DNA of 27,205 nucleotides from a virus. This document shows positions 4,213-15,075 of this stretch, piece after piece. The translations under genes were made by a program, and so were the position numbers. Positions within the stretch are counted from its first letter, which is position 1, and every line of letters begins with the position of its first letter. Under the pieces are notes generated by a model. The model did no database searches, was not told the origin of the DNA, and saw nothing but the letters and a program-made list of their open reading frames with translations. The stretch lies in UHGV virus genome UHGV-0267347; one strand, given 5' to 3'.

Positions 4213-4605
4213 TCAATCTTTAACTTCGGGGTCCATCTCTAGACTAATTTCCAACATCGATAGGCAGCCATCAATAAACCCCTCAGCCATCTGTATCTCA
4301 ATGCGTATTAGTTTCTCATCCTTTTTACGAGCCTTGGCGAGCTTTCTTTTAGAGATACCGTATAGATAATGGGCAACAAGAAGCGAATGTTCGTCCGGCC
4401 TTTTTTGCCTTAGACGAGCAAGACAACCTTCAATAATTAATGCATCACTATCTGAACATGCCTGACGTGTTTTGCTTGTATAGGGAAGAAGCCCTTTAAA
4501 CCCAGCAGCTATAGGAGAATAGTCTACTCCTGAACTATCACTCACCGCCCATGCTCCCCAACGCTCCAGAACCATTTGAATATCACGCATCAACTTTCTC
4601 CACAA
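4213..4605 (-). CDS. Q: late-gene antiterminator Q (Phage_antitermQ / QuuD-like); alternative start at 4590
   Basis: MRDIQMVLERWGAWA...IAAGFKGL...CLARL...AEGFIDGCLSML matches the recalled N-terminus and Cys/His pattern of E. coli prophage Q-type antiterminators. Confidence 0.85.
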   Translation of the reverse strand: MWRKLMRDIQMVLERWGAWAVSDSSGVDYSPIAAGFKGLLPYTSKTRQACSDSDALIIEGCLARLRQKRPDEHSLLVAHYLYGISKRKLAKARKKDEKLIRIEIQMAEGFIDGCLSMLEISLEMDPEVKD

Positions 4606-5604: not shown

Positions 5605-6414
5605 TCAATGAACGGTATCGAGCAGCTTTAACAGCTCAGGAAATCGGGATTCGAAGAAATGCGGCTGCGTCTCGCGCGGATTTGCGGGACTGGTGATGTT
5701 CTTGCCGAACATGCAGCCTTTCGCCGTCAGCGACCAGAATTTTTTGATGTTGTTAATCGCGGTACGGCTGTATCGTTCGCGCTGCTCGACGATCCCCAGC
5801 TTCACCATCTGGTGATATGCCTGATTAGCCGTCAGGCGGATACCATACTGTTTCAGCAGTGCACTCAGTGACAGTGTCGGGCGACTTGAGCCATCGTGTG
5901 CATCAGCAGGAGCATCAATGGCATAGCGCGGTGCCAGATTCGGTAAGCCAACAGCCTCCTGGAGTTTCTGACAGGCACCAAGCACAGATGAGTTAGACAG
6001 GTTTAACTCCCGACGCATAAAGTCCAGCAGAATCACACCAGCCTGCATCTTGTCAGCAGCCTGTCCGGATAATTTTTCCGGTGCGCTGGTTACCATGTCG
6101 AAAGTACGGATCACCTTCAGATGGAATGACGGGCTGATCCACATTGCATAGGCATACACCAGTTCCTTGCAGACATAAGTTCCCCGTTCATTTCCCCCAT
6201 GAATCACACTCACCGGGTCAACACCCAAATTCTGGGTGTTGGTCAATTCATGAACAAGTTCAACAGTTTGTTGGCTGGAAAGAAACTTTCCTGGCTCCTT
6301 GGTTCTGGCATTTGCACCAGATGCTACTGCTGCGCGATGCAGATCGTTCAGGCTGTAACGCCCATAAGCATCACGACGAACTTCAATACCATCAATGACC
6401 ATCAGATTATTCAT
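5605..6414 (-). CDS. KilA-N domain protein
   Basis: Start chosen at internal ATG 6414 with AAGGAG SD 9 nt upstream; N-terminus MNNLMVIDGIEVRRDAYGRYSLNDLHRAA...GTYVCKELVYAYAMWISPSFHLKVIRTF fits the KilA-N fold signature. Confidence 0.8.
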   Translation of the reverse strand: MNNLMVIDGIEVRRDAYGRYSLNDLHRAAVASGANARTKEPGKFLSSQQTVELVHELTNTQNLGVDPVSVIHGGNERGTYVCKELVYAYAMWISPSFHLKVIRTFDMVTSAPEKLSGQAADKMQAGVILLDFMRRELNLSNSSVLGACQKLQEAVGLPNLAPRYAIDAPADAHDGSSRPTLSLSALLKQYGIRLTANQAYHQMVKLGIVEQRERYSRTAINNIKKFWSLTAKGCMFGKNITSPANPRETQPHFFESRFPELLKLLDTVH

Positions 6415-10362: not shown

Positions 10363-10459
10363 ACGCCCTCCAAACTAAGTTTTATTAGATGCTAATTACA
10401 AATCTATCTTTGGTCAATAAAAACTAAGATTACTTAGCAATTCAAGAAATGGTGCTCCT
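10363..10459. promoter_or_regulatory. OR-like divergent promoter/operator region
   Basis: Two 14-bp palindromes built on CTAAG half-sites: CTAAGTTTTATTAG (10375-10388) and CTAAGATTACTTAG (10424-10437), between divergent cro-like and cI starts. Confidence 0.5.
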
Positions 10460-11086
10460 ATGGAAACGGTTGGTCAGCGTATAAAAGCTCTGAGAAGAGT
10501 TACCGGAACGTCCCAGAAAGAATTGGGTAAATTTTGTGGAGTAAGCGACGTTGCTGTGGGGTACTGGGAGAAAGACATCAATACCCCTGGTGGGGAGGCA
10601 CTTTCGAAATTAGCGAAGTTCTTCAATACGTCAATAGATTACATTCTTTATGGTGCTGAGTTTGAAGGCAAACTCGTCACAAACATGCGCAGAGTTCCTG
10701 TAATATCGTGGGTTCAGGCTGGGCAGTTTACTGAGTGCAGGGCAGCAGAAGTGTTTAGTGAAGTGGACAAGTGGGTAGATACATCATTAAAGATTGGTGA
10801 TAACTCATTTGCATTAGAGGTTAAAGGTGACTCCATGACTAACCCTAATGGCCTCCCAACAATACCAGAAGGCGCAACAGTGATTGTAGATCCAGATGCA
10901 GAACCTCGTCATGGAAAAATAGTCATCGCTCGACTTGATGGAACAAACGAAGCTACAGTAAAAAAATTAGTCATCGATGGCCCTCAAAAGTTTTTAGTGC
11001 CATTAAATCCTCGGTATCCCAACATCCCTATCAATGGTAATTGCCTTATCATTGGTGTAGTCAAAGGAGTTCAATACGAACTCTAA
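10460..11086 (+). CDS. cI: CI-type repressor (XRE HTH + S24 LexA-like peptidase)
   Basis: N-terminal HTH (QKELGKFCGVSDVAVGYWEKD), C-terminal GDSM serine motif (VKGDSMTNP) and downstream Lys (VKKLVIDG), characteristic of autocleaving phage repressors. Confidence 0.9.
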   Translation: METVGQRIKALRRVTGTSQKELGKFCGVSDVAVGYWEKDINTPGGEALSKLAKFFNTSIDYILYGAEFEGKLVTNMRRVPVISWVQAGQFTECRAAEVFSEVDKWVDTSLKIGDNSFALEVKGDSMTNPNGLPTIPEGATVIVDPDAEPRHGKIVIARLDGTNEATVKKLVIDGPQKFLVPLNPRYPNIPINGNCLIIGVVKGVQYEL

Positions 11087-11098
11087 GACCTCTCTTCT

Positions 11099-11166
11099 CT
11101 AACTAAGGCACCGAACTAAGAAAAGTTTGGTGTTTTCTCTTGCCATAATAACTAAGTTAAGTTAGA
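11099..11166. promoter_or_regulatory. OL/pL-like operator region (CTAAG repeats)
   Basis: CTAAG at 11103, 11116 and 11152 plus CTAAGTTAAGTTAG, immediately downstream of the cI stop; mirrors the OR half-sites. Confidence 0.4.
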
Positions 11167-11251
11167 TTTTATATCAAAGATAACGAACAGGCAGGACGCC
11201 CACGAAGTAGCCGCCTGGGGCATATGAAGTCCAGGATGATTCGTTAGCAAC

Positions 11252-11275
11252 AAAAAAGCGCCCTACAGGACGCTT
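11252..11275 (-). terminator. intrinsic terminator (minus-strand sense)
   Basis: aagcgccc-taca-ggacgctt hairpin preceded on the plus strand by AAAAAA, giving stem + UUUUUU for a leftward transcript; would shield cI from the antisense gene at 11512-11946. Confidence 0.45.
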
Positions 11276-11333: not shown

Positions 11334-11540
11334 ATGCACAAAACAGAACCCAAAATCGTCGCGCCTGGCTACACAGATGAGGAAATTTATGAGTGGATGA
11401 CAAAGAAGCTGGCAGCTATAAACCAGCTTCGTGAAGTGCTGTCTTATCGACAGGAAACAATAGACTCCTTAAAAAAACTGGATCAGGAAATCACGGTTTT
11501 ATCACAGGATGTTACTTTAGATATTGTGCAGACAAATTAG
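11334..11540 (+). CDS. hypothetical small protein (68 aa), first ORF after the pL-like region
   Basis: ATG at 11334 preceded by GAGGAGGTG SD; coiled-coil-like sequence; overlaps the 3' end of the opposite-strand 144-aa ORF, so it is uncertain. Confidence 0.35.
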   Translation: MHKTEPKIVAPGYTDEEIYEWMTKKLAAINQLREVLSYRQETIDSLKKLDQEITVLSQDVTLDIVQTN

Positions 11541-11946
11541 GATCCCATTCATTTTCGTCAAAATCATCAAAGTGATGAATTTGTGATCTCCAGTCTCGAT
11601 AATCTAAAAATTTCTGGGCGGTTACGCTTATTTTATCAAGTGTGAGTTCATCCTGAATTGAAAGAAGAAGTTCATCAAATTTCATCTCATTAATCTGTTT
11701 TGGCATCCAGTGATGCTTCATCAGAATAAGGTGAACCAGAGCCTTTTTCCCATTCAACTGATTATAGGGAGTGCCGAATTTCTTCCGGTGCTCATGTAAG
11801 ACAAGGTCCAGAAGAGTAAGTAATGTTGCCCTTGATTCAACTTTGCTTATTTCGACTGATGACACTACCCCACTGATTTCAATGCCCCGATACTTTCCAA
11901 CATTTTCACAGTGGGATTTGTACAGCGTGTAGATATTACCGGACAT
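11512..11946 (-). CDS. hypothetical protein (144 aa), antisense to the early-left operon
   Basis: ORF track; AT-rich; intrinsic terminator on the same strand about 240 bp downstream; no motif recognised. Confidence 0.5.
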   Translation of the reverse strand: MSGNIYTLYKSHCENVGKYRGIEISGVVSSVEISKVESRATLLTLLDLVLHEHRKKFGTPYNQLNGKKALVHLILMKHHWMPKQINEMKFDELLLSIQDELTLDKISVTAQKFLDYRDWRSQIHHFDDFDENEWDPNLSAQYLK

Positions 11947-12059
11947 TTCTTTTCCTTTTGCGTTGTTGGGGATAACCAGATTAACCGAATCCTTGTTGTT
12001 GGGGAATAACCAGGTCCACCTCGCCTGATGTGGCTAAAAGCAGGCACATAACAGCTAAG

Positions 12060-12440
12060 TATTTTCAACCAGAGAGAATCCTTAGCGTTGTGGTGAATGC
12101 GGCTCAGCGCACGCGGGTTAAGGTTGAGGCTGACAGTCGACCTTCTGTGGATACCCACCCGCCTGGTGTGCAACCTTCGCCAGGCACCGGGAGGCACCCG
12201 GCACCACAACTTTATGCTGTGTGTAGTCCTGGCGGTACCAGTTTGTACCCTTGCTTCCGGCTGGTACCGTCCTTTTTACAAAACAGAGAAGAGCATCACC
12301 GGACGACGGGCTCATAACCCAATCCATCCGGGCGGCTGCCACCGCAGGTGTTCTTCTCTGTTTTGTGGAGAAACTAACCGCCCCTACGGGGGCATTTATG
12401 GAAATGTAATTGACTCAATAATCGCCGGACGGTGAGGGCT
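12060..12440. other. GC-rich, highly structured non-coding element (candidate structured RNA or regulatory DNA)
   Basis: No convincing ORF (three mutually overlapping Pro/Arg/Gly-rich frames); multiple inverted repeats: gcctgg/ccaggc (12160-12185), cggtaccag/ctggtaccg (12233-12269, 9-bp stem), aaacagagaaga/tcttctctgttt (12280-12362) enclosing further GC stems. Confidence 0.35.
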
Positions 12441-12490
12441 TCCTTTTACCCGAATTCAGCGCGGTGCAGCGCATATACGTGGAGAACAAA

Positions 12491-13027
12491 ATGTCATTTA
12501 TTAAAACTTTTTCCGGGAAGCATTTTTATTATGACAGGATAAATAAAGACGACATCGTTATTAACGATATCGCGGTTTCCCTTTCAAATATCTGTCGCTT
12601 TGCAGGACATCTTTCACACTTCTACAGTGTCGCCCAACATGCGGTGCTTTGCAGCCAGCTGGTGCCGCAGGAATTTGCTTTTGAAGCTTTAATGCATGAT
12701 GCAACAGAAGCATATTGCCAGGACATCCCCGCACCACTGAAACGACTTCTTCCTGACTATAAACGGATGGAAGAAAAAATAGACGCCGTAATCCGTGAGA
12801 AATACGGGTTACCTCCTGTTATGAGCACGCCAGTGAAATATGCCGATCTCATTATGCTGGCAACCGAACGCCGCGATCTCGGGCTTGATGATGGCTCTTT
12901 CTGGCCTGTGCTGGAAGGTATCCCGGCAACAGAGATGTTCAACGTGATTCCACTGGCTCCAGGCCATGCCTACGGGATGTTTATGGAACGCTTTAACGAA
13001 TTATCGGAGTTACGCAAATGCGCATGA
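12491..13027 (+). CDS. HD-domain phosphohydrolase (YfbR-like 5'-deoxynucleotidase family)
   Basis: AQHAVL ... ALMHDATEAYCQDIP matches the H...HD...E..D metal-binding signature of YfbR-type HD hydrolases; ATG 12491 with GGAGAA SD. Confidence 0.75.
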   Translation: MSFIKTFSGKHFYYDRINKDDIVINDIAVSLSNICRFAGHLSHFYSVAQHAVLCSQLVPQEFAFEALMHDATEAYCQDIPAPLKRLLPDYKRMEEKIDAVIREKYGLPPVMSTPVKYADLIMLATERRDLGLDDGSFWPVLEGIPATEMFNVIPLAPGHAYGMFMERFNELSELRKCA

Positions 13028-14035: not shown

Positions 14036-15075
14036 AGGCTGAAGCATGGCGGGTCAGCAAACTTGGTGAAATACCTGATATAACGTTCGAGGAAGCGTGT
14101 GTCAGGTGGCTTGAAGAGAAAGCACATAAAAAATCACTGGACGATGACAAAAGCCGGATCGGATTCTGGCTTCAACATTTCGCAGGAATGCAACTAAGAG
14201 ACATTACTGAATCAAAAATTTATTCAGCAATGCAGAAAATGACGAACCGGCGTCATGAGGAAAACTGGAAACTCAGGGCAGAAGCATGCAGAAAAAAAGG
14301 GAAACCTGTTCCAGAATACACGCCAAAACCAGCGTCCGTTGCAACGAAGGCTACGCATCTTTCATTTATAAAGGCCCTACTAAGAGCCGCAGAGCGTGAA
14401 TGGAAAATGCTGGATAAGGCACCAATTATTAAAGTGCCTCAACCAAAGAATAAACGGATCCGCTGGCTGGAGCCCCATGAAGCACAAAGGCTGATTGATG
14501 AATGTCCGGAGCCATTAAAGTCTGTTGTTGAATTTGCACTGGCAACAGGCTTAAGACGCTCGAACATCATCAACCTTGAATGGCAACAAATAGATATGCA
14601 GCGCCGGGTGGCATGGATAAACCCGGAAGAGAGTAAATCAAACCGCGCAATTGGCGTTGCGCTGAATGATACTGCATGTCGCGTATTGAAAAAACAAATC
14701 GGGAATCATCACCGTTGGGTATTTGTGTACAAGGAAAGCTGTACCAAACCAGACGGAACGAAAGCGCCAACAGTAAGGAAGATGCGGTATGACGCAAACA
14801 CAGCCTGGAAAGCGGCGCTGAGACGGGCTGGTATTGATGATTTCAGATTTCACGACTTGAGACACACCTGGGCAAGTTGGCTGGTTCAAGCCGGAGTCCC
14901 GTTGTCAGTGTTACAGGAAATGGGAGGCTGGGAGTCTATCGAAATGGTTCGTCGATATGCTCACCTTGCACCTAATCACCTTACCGAACACGCACGGCAA
15001 ATAGACTCGATCCTGAACCCATCGGTCCCAAATTTGTCCCAGTCAAAAAATAAGGAAGGTACTAATGATGTGTAA
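13912..15075 (+). CDS. int: tyrosine integrase
   Basis: 387 aa; C-terminal catalytic signature R...HDLRHTWAS...GGW...VRRYAHL (R-H-x-x-R-Y), transcribed toward the att core. Confidence 0.95.

Follow-up and report, generated by a model that had tools for sequence, protein, structure and literature searches.

DicF of the Escherichia coli Qin prophage and the STnc100 and PasD RNAs are the closest described relatives of an RNA element in the virus genome UHGV-0267347, of which a stretch of 27,205 nt, hereafter called the window, was analysed. DicF is a small regulatory RNA (sRNA) that lacks a promoter of its own. It is cut from an operon transcript by RNase III, which yields a 190-nt form, and by RNase E, which yields the 53-nt form, and its 3' end is that of a terminator (PMC10448788, citing Faubladier 1990). 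Through its 3' region, DicF pairs with the ribosome binding site of ftsZ (PMC5069750). STnc100 is a multi-copy prophage sRNA, which is present in 11 copies in strain EDL933, one of them confirmed by Northern blot (PMC5331693). It has been linked to the Hfq-dependent PasD sRNAs of enteropathogenic E. coli (10.64898/2026.05.13.724894; PMC8550237), and members of the STnc100/PasD family accumulate as RNAs of ~160-240 nt (PMC5331693, PMC8550237). RNase III, which is of interest for the element described here, accommodates a duplex of ~22 bp (PMC6212723).

The initial annotation of the window had pointed to a GC-rich, highly structured segment in the early-left operon and had considered an sRNA, a processing element, an antitermination element and a dense protein-binding region. 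All features it described are present, with small corrections of coordinates. The + strand of positions 12044-12394 is a non-coding, conserved RNA cassette in the early-left operon: two covariation-supported folds, called module A and module B, flank an intrinsic terminator inside a repressor-controlled operon, and the folds share homology with DicF and with sRNAs that are expressed and depend on Hfq. With moderate confidence, the cassette is read as a DicF/STnc100-type sRNA with terminator and module B, which is processed from the transcript of the early-left promoter PL. The earlier interpretation is therefore upheld in part: structured RNA, sRNA and processing element stand, the latter two because they fit the anatomy of the cassette and the homologous dicBF system of Qin, while the proposals of a put-like RNA and of protein-binding DNA are not supported. 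The cassette comprises the following features.

12044-12092, + strand: 5' hairpin of ~20 bp with bulges (inverted repeat and minimum-free-energy fold)
12087-12210, + strand: module A core (STnc100 match, covariation, pseudoknot test)
12087-12095/12202-12210, + strand: closing stem of module A, GUUGUGGUG/CACCACAAC (covariation)
within the module A core, + strand: GGUGAAU junction
~12098-12114, + strand: hairpin H1 (fold)
12120-12126/12171-12177, + strand: pseudoknot AAGGUUG/CAACCUU (permutation test)
12161-12168/12178-12185, + strand: H3 (fold)
12187-12201, + strand: H4, CCGGG-AGGCA-CCCGG (fold)
12211-12230, + strand: single-stranded linker UUUAUGCUGUGUGUAGUCCU (DicF alignment)
12231-12279, + strand: intrinsic terminator with stem 12231-12243/12259-12271 (-20.5 kcal/mol) and U-tract 12273-12277
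12273-12371, + strand: module B, a three-way junction (model R1, covariation, RNAalifold)
12273-12297/12347-12371, + strand: P1 of 25 bp, whose first five bases are the terminator U-tract
12299-12305/12325-12331, + strand: P2 (fold)
12308-12320, + strand: apical hairpin GGG-CUCAUAA-CCC, resembling a tRNA(CAU) anticodon arm
12332-12335/12342-12345, + strand: P3 (fold)
12380-12393, + strand: hairpin C, GCCCC-UACG-GGGGC, after the conserved GUGGAGAAACUAACC tail (fold)

Composition, folding and non-coding character

The GC content is 0.54-0.55 over 12000-12449 and 0.36-0.42 in 11400-11999, which bears out the description of a GC-rich segment. The + strand of 12040-12400 folds at -161.7 kcal/mol, compared with -120.6 ± 5.2 kcal/mol for dinucleotide shuffles (z -7.9), and the - strand reaches z -3.6, so that the segment is indeed highly structured. 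Three inverted repeats had been listed, and each has a place in the folds: the 9-bp repeat CGGTACCAG/CTGGTACCG lies at 12233-12241/12261-12269; the long repeat covers 12278-12302/12342-12366 and, with G-U pairs, forms the 25-bp helix 12273-12297/12347-12371; and GCCTGG/CCAGGC is part of the 8-bp stem 12161-12168/12178-12185. A perfect 9-bp long-range pair, GTTGTGGTG at 12087-12095 and CACCACAAC at 12202-12210, had been overlooked.

Four overlapping open reading frames (ORFs) cross the segment, one more than first counted, with open frames on both strands. Long open frames on both strands and database records that annotate a coding sequence or pseudogene would be the grounds for regarding the segment as a protein-coding gene or pseudogene: SfII_35 is a 112-aa protein drawn over the segment, and PGAP calls a 'frameshifted hypothetical protein' pseudogene (PCN061_RS29560). 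None of the four ORFs matches Pfam, and the 112-aa ORF at 12097-12435 has no match in PHROG. In comparison with the copy in Salmonella phage ST64B, substitutions are spread evenly over the codon positions (17/93, 20/94 and 18/94) without an excess at third positions, and the indels measure 1, 1 and 20 nt. ST64B and SfV leave the segment unannotated, and so do several further records. To the extent that sequence analysis allows, a protein-coding reading is excluded, and we regard it as almost certainly wrong; the SfII_35 and PGAP calls cover the RNA modules and are probably mis-annotations. The earlier statement that the segment holds no credible ORF agrees with the Pfam and PHROG searches and the codon positions.

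Module A, a pseudoknotted relative of STnc100 and PasD

In a permissive Rfam scan, positions 12057-12279 match the full STnc100 model (RF02076, model positions 1-206) with 43.1 bits and an E-value of 6.7e-8. The Rfam scan proposed with the initial annotation has thus a divided outcome, as this sub-threshold match stands beside the absence of any match in the window at gathering thresholds. For comparison, 166 instances were gathered with the core motif and reduced to 37 divergent representatives. The closing stem is paired in 35/37, 35/37, 30/37 and 24/37 of these at four variable positions, with several pair types at each, and registers that are shifted as a control pair in 0-20 of 37 at the same positions. 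The window contains all parts of the core fold, namely the closing stem, GGUGAAU, CCGGG-AGGCA-CCCGG and the 3' strand of the stem. The middle of the module is less sharply defined: a candidate alternative helix pairs 12113-12118 with 12157-12162, and the H1/H2 fold drawn there is approximate. Upstream, the 3' arm of the 5' hairpin at 12044-12092 overlaps the 5' strand of the closing stem.

A pseudoknot is found throughout the family, formed by the loop of the third hairpin and the segment that immediately follows the first. The cognate duplexes have a mean of -10.56 kcal/mol, compared with -6.3 for non-cognate pairs between sequences, and none of 2000 permutations reaches the observed value. 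Apart from AAGGUUG/CAACCUU in the window, the pairs include CCAGUCA/UGACUGG and CUGGUG/CACCGG as well as AACAGUUAA/UUAACUG in Qin. The pseudoknot is not drawn in the consensus structure line of Rfam STnc100 and is not mentioned in the 2026 Pas preprint (10.64898/2026.05.13.724894), nor was it found elsewhere in Rfam 15 or the literature searched; the same preprint does not mention DicF. From its sequence, module A is a divergent, sub-threshold and pseudoknotted relative of STnc100/PasD. PasB was considered as a further match and rejected, as it is a different RNA of 83 nt whose probe sequence does not match the element.

Module A shares with STnc100/PasD the closing stem, the GGUGAAU junction, H1, H3, CACCGGGAGGCACCCGG followed by CACC, and the pseudoknot between a loop and an upstream segment; PasD1 has the same architecture. 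In both cases, a linker and an intrinsic terminator follow, the whole measures ~200 nt, and it is borne by prophages of Enterobacterales. Two sub-types can be distinguished. In the classical one, H1 has the sequence CCCCC-UGUGCGG-AGGGG, and -35/-10-like hexamers with a TTGAC(A/C)-type -35 lie upstream. The window copy belongs to the subgroup with a GCGG-type H1 (GCGG-CUCAGCGCA), which lacks promoter-like hexamers of its own and is embedded in an operon. It is located in the early-left operon and not near Q, stx or lysis genes, and it is followed by module B, which is present at only 3/100 loci chosen by the STnc100 motif.

Cores of this subgroup also occur in the Qin prophage, where the match scores 34.4 bits and separates dicF from dicB, and in phage P1, where a match of 33.4 bits precedes tciA in the ban operon. 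The Qin core, below threshold as well, fills the dicF-dicB intergenic region of E. coli K-12 (L315, 2933-3142) directly upstream of dicB. In P1 (L004, NC_005856), an A-like core follows each of two B-like hairpins; these pairs are located at 2149-2623 on the strand of the ban operon, between a tRNA-Thr gene and tciA and antisense to the annotated coding sequences plp and upl. A 'dicF-like region' is annotated in the P1 record as well, immediately behind the ban promoter.

The terminator-bearing tail and its kinship to DicF

The tail of module A (12211-12279) aligns with nearly the whole 53-nt DicF. The alignment scores 43, compared with 18.9 ± 3.8 for shuffled sequences, none of which (0/2000) scores as high; without the U-tract, the score is 32 compared with 16.8 ± 3.3. 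In this alignment, the linker corresponds to the 5' part of DicF. It is also similar to the UGUGAG seed region of PasD (PMC8550237 supplement), and may be regarded as a putative seed region and a possible entry site for RNase E. The terminator resembles the terminator hairpin of DicF in sequence. ST64B keeps a terminator at the same place with a wholly different stem sequence.

In ~40 distinct viral contexts, a 5' domain of the long form of DicF, as in Qin, is located upstream of the same terminator and module B. This arrangement, in which a domain like the Qin 190-nt DicF precursor replaces the STnc100-type core, was seen in L011 and ~40 other contexts from IMG/VR, and the 5' domains look like cassettes that can be exchanged. 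A count of 190 nt back from the 3' end of DicF puts the computed RNase III cut into the 3' arm of a ~24-bp hairpin of Qin. The hairpin at 12044-12092 of the window occupies the same relative position, and its 3' arm likewise overlaps a strand of the closing stem. The ~24-bp Qin hairpin upstream of the DicF precursor (L315, 2673-2758) contains GGUUCAUAGAU and is a weak match of the module B model R1 (13.9 bits).

The two systems have several features in common. Both lie in an early-left operon under a cI-like repressor; both combine a structured 5' domain with a terminator, which in the window would likewise give an RNA of ~190 nt, and have a long hairpin just upstream; and Qin, too, has a core of the STnc100 type, which is located between dicF and dicB. 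They differ in that the 5' domain of the window is of the STnc100 type instead of the Qin type, in that its terminator loop lacks CUCCG, and in the order of modules, which is A-terminator-B in the window and hairpin-A'-DicF-A in Qin.

Module B, a three-way junction with a tRNA(CAU)-like arm

Homologs of module B were collected by motif scans of viral and bacterial contigs. The model R1 was built from 12 of them, and 32 R1 matches were aligned, which come from E. coli, Citrobacter, Enterobacter, Kosakonia, Leclercia, Mixta, Erwinia, Buttiauxella, Phytobacter, Pantoea and others. In the alignment, 93.4% of the paired cells are filled by base pairs, compared with 40-58% if the partner columns are slid. 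Changes on both sides of a pair occur at 16 pairs (10 in P1, 3 in P2 and 3 in P3), whereas shuffles give 6.8 ± 1.3 and never as many (0/500). An unguided RNAalifold run yielded the same fold. On the window, R1 scores 111.8 bits on the + strand and 33.7 bits on the - strand, and this difference, together with the many U-G pairs, identifies module B as an RNA of the + strand. The earlier proposal of a structured RNA is supported, for the + strand, by covariation, strand-specific G-U pairs and the two R1 scores, and the folding and covariation check suggested at that time turned out in its favour, with compensatory changes in P1, P2 and P3 of module B and in the closing stem and pseudoknot of module A.

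No family of Rfam 15 matches module B, and a literature search for tRNA-like or anticodon-mimic elements in lambdoid early operons and for neighbours of ECs1072 returned nothing relevant; module B is thus a conserved RNA fold that was not found in Rfam 15 or the searched literature. A U-tract lies directly upstream of it in 87/92 distinct contexts of the E. coli and Salmonella type. In P1 and in L139, the order of modules is reversed, with B preceding A. The homology of the module ends at ~12391, and homologs keep a hairpin at the position of hairpin C with other stems (CGACC/GGUCG, GGCGG/CCGCC). Conservation extends beyond module B to the tail UGUGGAGAAACUAACC (12363-12378) and a GC hairpin behind it; in L139, a similar UGUGGAGUAAUC and a hairpin are found after module A instead. 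E. coli K-12 CPS-53 has yfdP through yfdT with the element deleted, and R1 finds no match there. The label 'YfdP' on a match in Salmonella phage As1 probably belongs to the genuine gene next to it, as it does in ST64B and mEp460. Motif matches in bacterial contigs outside the Enterobacterales were set aside as chance hits, together with two truncated tRNA-fMet-like fragments, one of which ends in CAACCA, and ARAGORN called no tRNA in any of the motif-scan matches.

The apical hairpin has the layout of an anticodon arm, in which a stem carries a loop of 7 nt with U33 and a 3-nt anticodon, and GGG-CUCAUAA-CCC is what we take to be the sequence of the anticodon stem-loop of E. coli tRNA-fMet. UCAU is kept in copies that were found independently of the search motif: CUCAUUA in ST64B and L101, UUCAUAU and GUCAUAU in P1, and ACUCAUAA in L139. 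A third type of copy, from Klebsiella and Raoultella phages, has a 6-bp outer stem GGCCUG/CAGGCC, which in most copies is followed by (G/A)CCA. These type-3 copies follow tRNA arrays that lie downstream of Q; their distance from the last tRNA is 5-7 nt, which equals the spacing between true tRNAs. Such copies (L003, L010, L015, L017, L042, L085, L090, L096, L235 and L299) amount to an unannotated, tRNA-like RNA of ~67 nt with a CAU 'anticodon' and no D arm, in arrays with Asn, Phe, Thr and Arg-UCU tRNAs. L101 carries both forms of module B, the long-helix form of early operons and the short form of tRNA arrays, at 6042-6145 and 14615-14681.

Module B looks tRNA-derived. Like phage tRNA(CAU) genes (tRNA-Ile2, tRNA-Met), it has the 7-nt CUCAUAA loop on G-C pairs, and the type-3 core sits in the slot of a tRNA array with an acceptor-like GGCC... 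stem and mostly an NCCA end. Unlike these genes, it lacks a D arm and a T loop, the loop of the second hairpin having 6 nt; the window copy has a 25-bp outer helix and no NCCA end, which is present in most type-3 copies only; and tRNA finders remain silent. ARAGORN found no tRNA in the window or in the copies of module B, its relaxed settings included, where only unreliable calls in mitochondrial mode were made for the copies, and the Rfam tRNA model did not match.

These features raise the question of whether module B acts mainly as a tRNA mimic in cis or trans, with processing as a secondary matter. Its anticodon-like arm, with U-CAU in a loop of 7 nt above three G-C pairs, would then bind or decoy a reader of tRNA(CAU) loops, for which MetRS, TilS, the ribosomal P site with IF3, or an anticodon nuclease such as VapC are candidates. 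The conservation of UCAU in every variant, including those found without the search motif, and the type-3 copies in tRNA slots, most with (G/A)CCA on a GGCC... acceptor-like stem, would agree with such a role. The genes downstream vary as well (yfdR, yfdP-like, tciA, lysis genes), which argues against a gene-specific leader. On the other hand, neither ARAGORN nor the Rfam tRNA model calls a tRNA, the window copy has neither a CCA end nor a D arm, and the resemblance could be mere ancestry from a phage tRNA gene. A mainly mimetic function is therefore considered unlikely. More unlikely still is the far-reaching version, in which module B is a new class of phage tRNA(CAU) mimic that is excised as a discrete RNA and acts on a host factor as its ligand or decoy, with the module A domain as a shared recognition module. 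If it were true, the core of ~65-70 nt would consist of an acceptor-like stem, an extended U-CAU anticodon arm and one short hairpin without a D arm, and would be released by tRNA-processing enzymes in the late arrays with Klebsiella-type copies and by RNase III in the early-left leaders with E. coli- and Salmonella-type copies, whose 25-bp helix takes in the U-tract of the terminator upstream. It would be a decoy for a reader of initiator, Met or Ile2 loops, for example a VapC-type nuclease or another tRNA-targeting defence, and thus an RNA-based counter-defence or translation-hijacking device. The pseudoknotted domain of STnc100, PasD and the DicF precursor would in this case be a module recognized by proteins or RNases and not a passive scaffold.

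Location in a repressor-controlled prophage operon

The window is of the lambdoid, SfII/SfIV/SfV/ST64B-like prophage type. A 601-nt query (11900-12500) is 100% identical to many E. coli chromosomes, and all or part of it is matched by 3015 of 5426 complete E. coli genomes, mostly with 95-99% identity. It also matches the Shigella phages SfII, SfIV and SfV, coliphages such as mEp460 and Stx2-converting phages, and the ST64B copy of the segment shows 77% identity. The surroundings of the cassette are as follows.

4216-4605, - strand: Q-like protein
10460-11086, + strand: LexA/cI-like repressor (gene order)
11116-11129, + strand: operator-like site CTAAGAAAAGTTTG, just upstream of PL
11140-11168, + strand: PL promoter TTGCCA-17-TAGATT, just after cI (promoter scan)
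11152-11165, + strand: operator-like site CTAAGTTAAGTTAG, overlapping PL
11334-11540, + strand: ORF of 68 aa (gene order)
11512-11946, - strand: ECs1072-family gene, antisense inside the PL operon
12491-13027, + strand: yfdR, an HD-type 5'-deoxynucleotidase, with ATG at 12491, directly 3' of the non-coding segment
3' of yfdR, + strand: two small genes, then xis and int (gene order)

The operator-like sites at 11116-11165 follow the motif CTAAG-N4-CTTAG, and CTAAGTTAAGTTAG and CTAAGAAAAGTTTG match two palindromes that lie between cro and cI, CTAAGATTACTTAG and CTAAGTTTTATTAG (10375-10388 and 10424-10437). A promoter with such sites is what would be expected of PL/OL, so that the label 'early-left operon' is correct. 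Likewise, the segment had rightly been placed directly upstream of the HD-hydrolase gene, as the ATG of yfdR is at 12491. The promoter scan gave no promoter-like site adjoining the cassette, and PL is the likely source of the transcripts that cross it. From the gene order, transcription would proceed from PL through the small ORF, antisense through the ECs1072-family gene, and through the cassette into yfdR up to xis/int. Minus-strand terminator-like hairpins are located at 11405-11430 and 11256-11275, downstream of the ECs1072-family gene in the region of the PL leader and small ORF, and this gene therefore looks like a self-contained convergent unit.

The lack of an evident N-like protein had led to the suggestion of a put-like mechanism. 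Module A and/or module B would then act in cis as an antiterminator RNA that binds RNA polymerase, replaces the N protein and permits read-through of the terminator at 12231-12279 and of later ones. No N-like protein was indeed detected among the PL (early-left) genes scanned with Pfam or PHROGs, as had been stated, and a strong terminator separates PL from yfdR-int. Module A is moreover compact and pseudoknotted, has invariant unpaired nucleotides and lies beside terminators in the window and in Qin. As in HK022, a structured RNA would be present in the early-left leader of a lambdoid phage in which no N protein was found. The similarity ends there: the HK022 genome gives only chance matches of 11-16 nt in blastn-short and no match to model R1, the architecture is different, and each module motif occurs once in the window without a partner on the PR side. 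Module B lies downstream of the terminator. Most members of the family are free-standing genes with promoter-like hexamers and, in 26 of the 37 STnc100-type representatives, an intrinsic terminator, and accumulate as ~160-240-nt RNAs (PMC5331693, PMC8550237). Since these relatives stop at their own terminators, module A does not suppress the terminator that belongs to it. A put-like function is thus judged very unlikely, and this part of the earlier interpretation is not supported.

Decayed copies and mosaic boundaries

Two further features flank the cassette.

11957-12012, + strand: imperfect direct repeats TTGTTGGGGATAACCAG/TTGTTGGGGAATAACCAG, in the leader of the minus-strand ECs1072-family gene
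12421-12455, + strand: degenerate partial copy of the P2 arm of module B, AUCGCCGGACGGUGAGGGCUUCCUUUUACCCGAAU (repeat search and sequence inspection)

The direct repeats contain 17-mers at 11963-11979 and, with a 1-nt insertion, at 11995-12012. The reported tandem duplication is therefore real, but it lies outside the conserved RNA module, as homology begins only near 12016. In a repeat search, the 17-mers resemble the 5' start of module A, GCGTTGTGGTGAAT (12082-12098), and look like truncated module A arms. They were also considered as cI operators and rejected, as they have no counterpart in the OR region and the operator-like motif is CTAAG-N4-CTTAG instead. The idea of a dense protein-binding DNA region is not supported either: the tandem 17-mers are without an operator-region counterpart and resemble 5' arms of module A. 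The element at 12421-12455 is probably a decayed module. It contains ATCGCCGGACGGTGAGGGCTTCCTTTTACCCGAAT, which resembles the P2 arm, and GGCACATAAC at 12043-12052 resembles the loop segment GGCTCATAAC; both fragments suggest decayed tandem modules.

Such remnants could mean that the entire segment is non-functional debris, consisting of decayed sRNA and tRNA gene fragments at a mosaic lambdoid recombination junction. The truncated copies at 11957-12012 and 12421-12455 would fit this explanation, as would the mosaic boundaries at ~12016, where homology to SfII and SKA5 begins, and at ~12230 and ~12391, and the shuffling of module order between phages. Debris would not be expected to show compensatory changes that keep P1, P2, P3, the closing stem of module A and the pseudoknot across genera, a terminator that is kept in ST64B with an unrelated stem sequence, or all or part of the query in 3015 of 5426 complete E. 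coli genomes, mostly at 95-99% identity. Pure debris is contradicted by the covariation, although the decayed fragments show ongoing shuffling, and we give this explanation very little credence, marginally less than the put-like one.

A model for processing of the PL transcript

In the preferred reading of a processed DicF/STnc100-type sRNA, the PL transcript would be cut by RNase III in the 5' hairpin (12044-12092), by analogy with Qin. Part of the transcripts would end at the terminator with its U-tract (12273-12277), giving an Hfq-type sRNA of ~190 nt, which RNase E might shorten to ~65 nt by cutting within the AU-rich linker (12211-12230). In read-through transcripts, helix P1 would form, which with 25 bp is an RNase III substrate of suitable size. 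Cleavage of P1 would trim the 3' end of the sRNA, free a tRNA-sized B core of ~70 nt and separate the yfdR-int mRNA, and in Klebsiella-type copies the same core would be excised by tRNA-processing enzymes. Terminator and processing together would limit early-left expression from yfdR through int.

A comparable arrangement is known from phage lambda, where sib lies downstream of int and destabilises the int mRNA. As at tI/sib, a terminator hairpin or its U-tract joins a longer duplex of RNase III size only in read-through transcripts. The element of the window differs in that it lies upstream of the body of the operon, and its cleavage by RNase III is a prediction.

Several points weigh against this reading. 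Each processing step is deduced from Qin and from helix geometry. The STnc100 score of 43.1 bits is below the Rfam gathering score of 47, and the Rfam DicF model (RF00039) gives 15.7 bits at 12218-12272, compared with a threshold of 48 and with 76.7 for authentic DicF, so that the A tail is a relative of DicF and not a member of the family. The loop segment ACUCCG of DicF, whose CUCCG is read as complementary to the Shine-Dalgarno sequence of ftsZ, is replaced by ACCCUUG in the window, and the function of DicF is therefore probably not conserved; in a duplex-fold test with the ftsZ leader, authentic DicF did not beat shuffled sequences either. Classical STnc100 genes carry their own -35/-10-like hexamers upstream, and the cassette may have a weak internal promoter. 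The H4 hairpin of module A and the apical hairpin of module B are invariant in their sets, in part because loci were gathered by exact motif, and thus hold no covariation information. Finally, the decayed fragments at 11957-12012 and 12421-12455 show that the region is also a mosaic of recombination and decay.

Significance

Three RNA families that have been treated separately, namely DicF together with its 190-nt precursor, STnc100 and PasD, seem to form a single modular system. They share a pseudoknotted domain and recurring partner modules, and the system spans early and late operons of temperate enterobacterial phages. Module B adds a conserved fold, which is found in tRNA arrays and fused to terminators. 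The annotation can be corrected accordingly, as SfII_35 and the 'frameshifted hypothetical protein' of PGAP cover an RNA and not a gene. With matches to all or part of the query in 3015 of 5426 complete E. coli genomes and homologs in Shigella and Stx-converting phages, the element is common, and it could shape both the feed of sRNAs into host regulation upon prophage induction and the throttling of integrase and excisionase.

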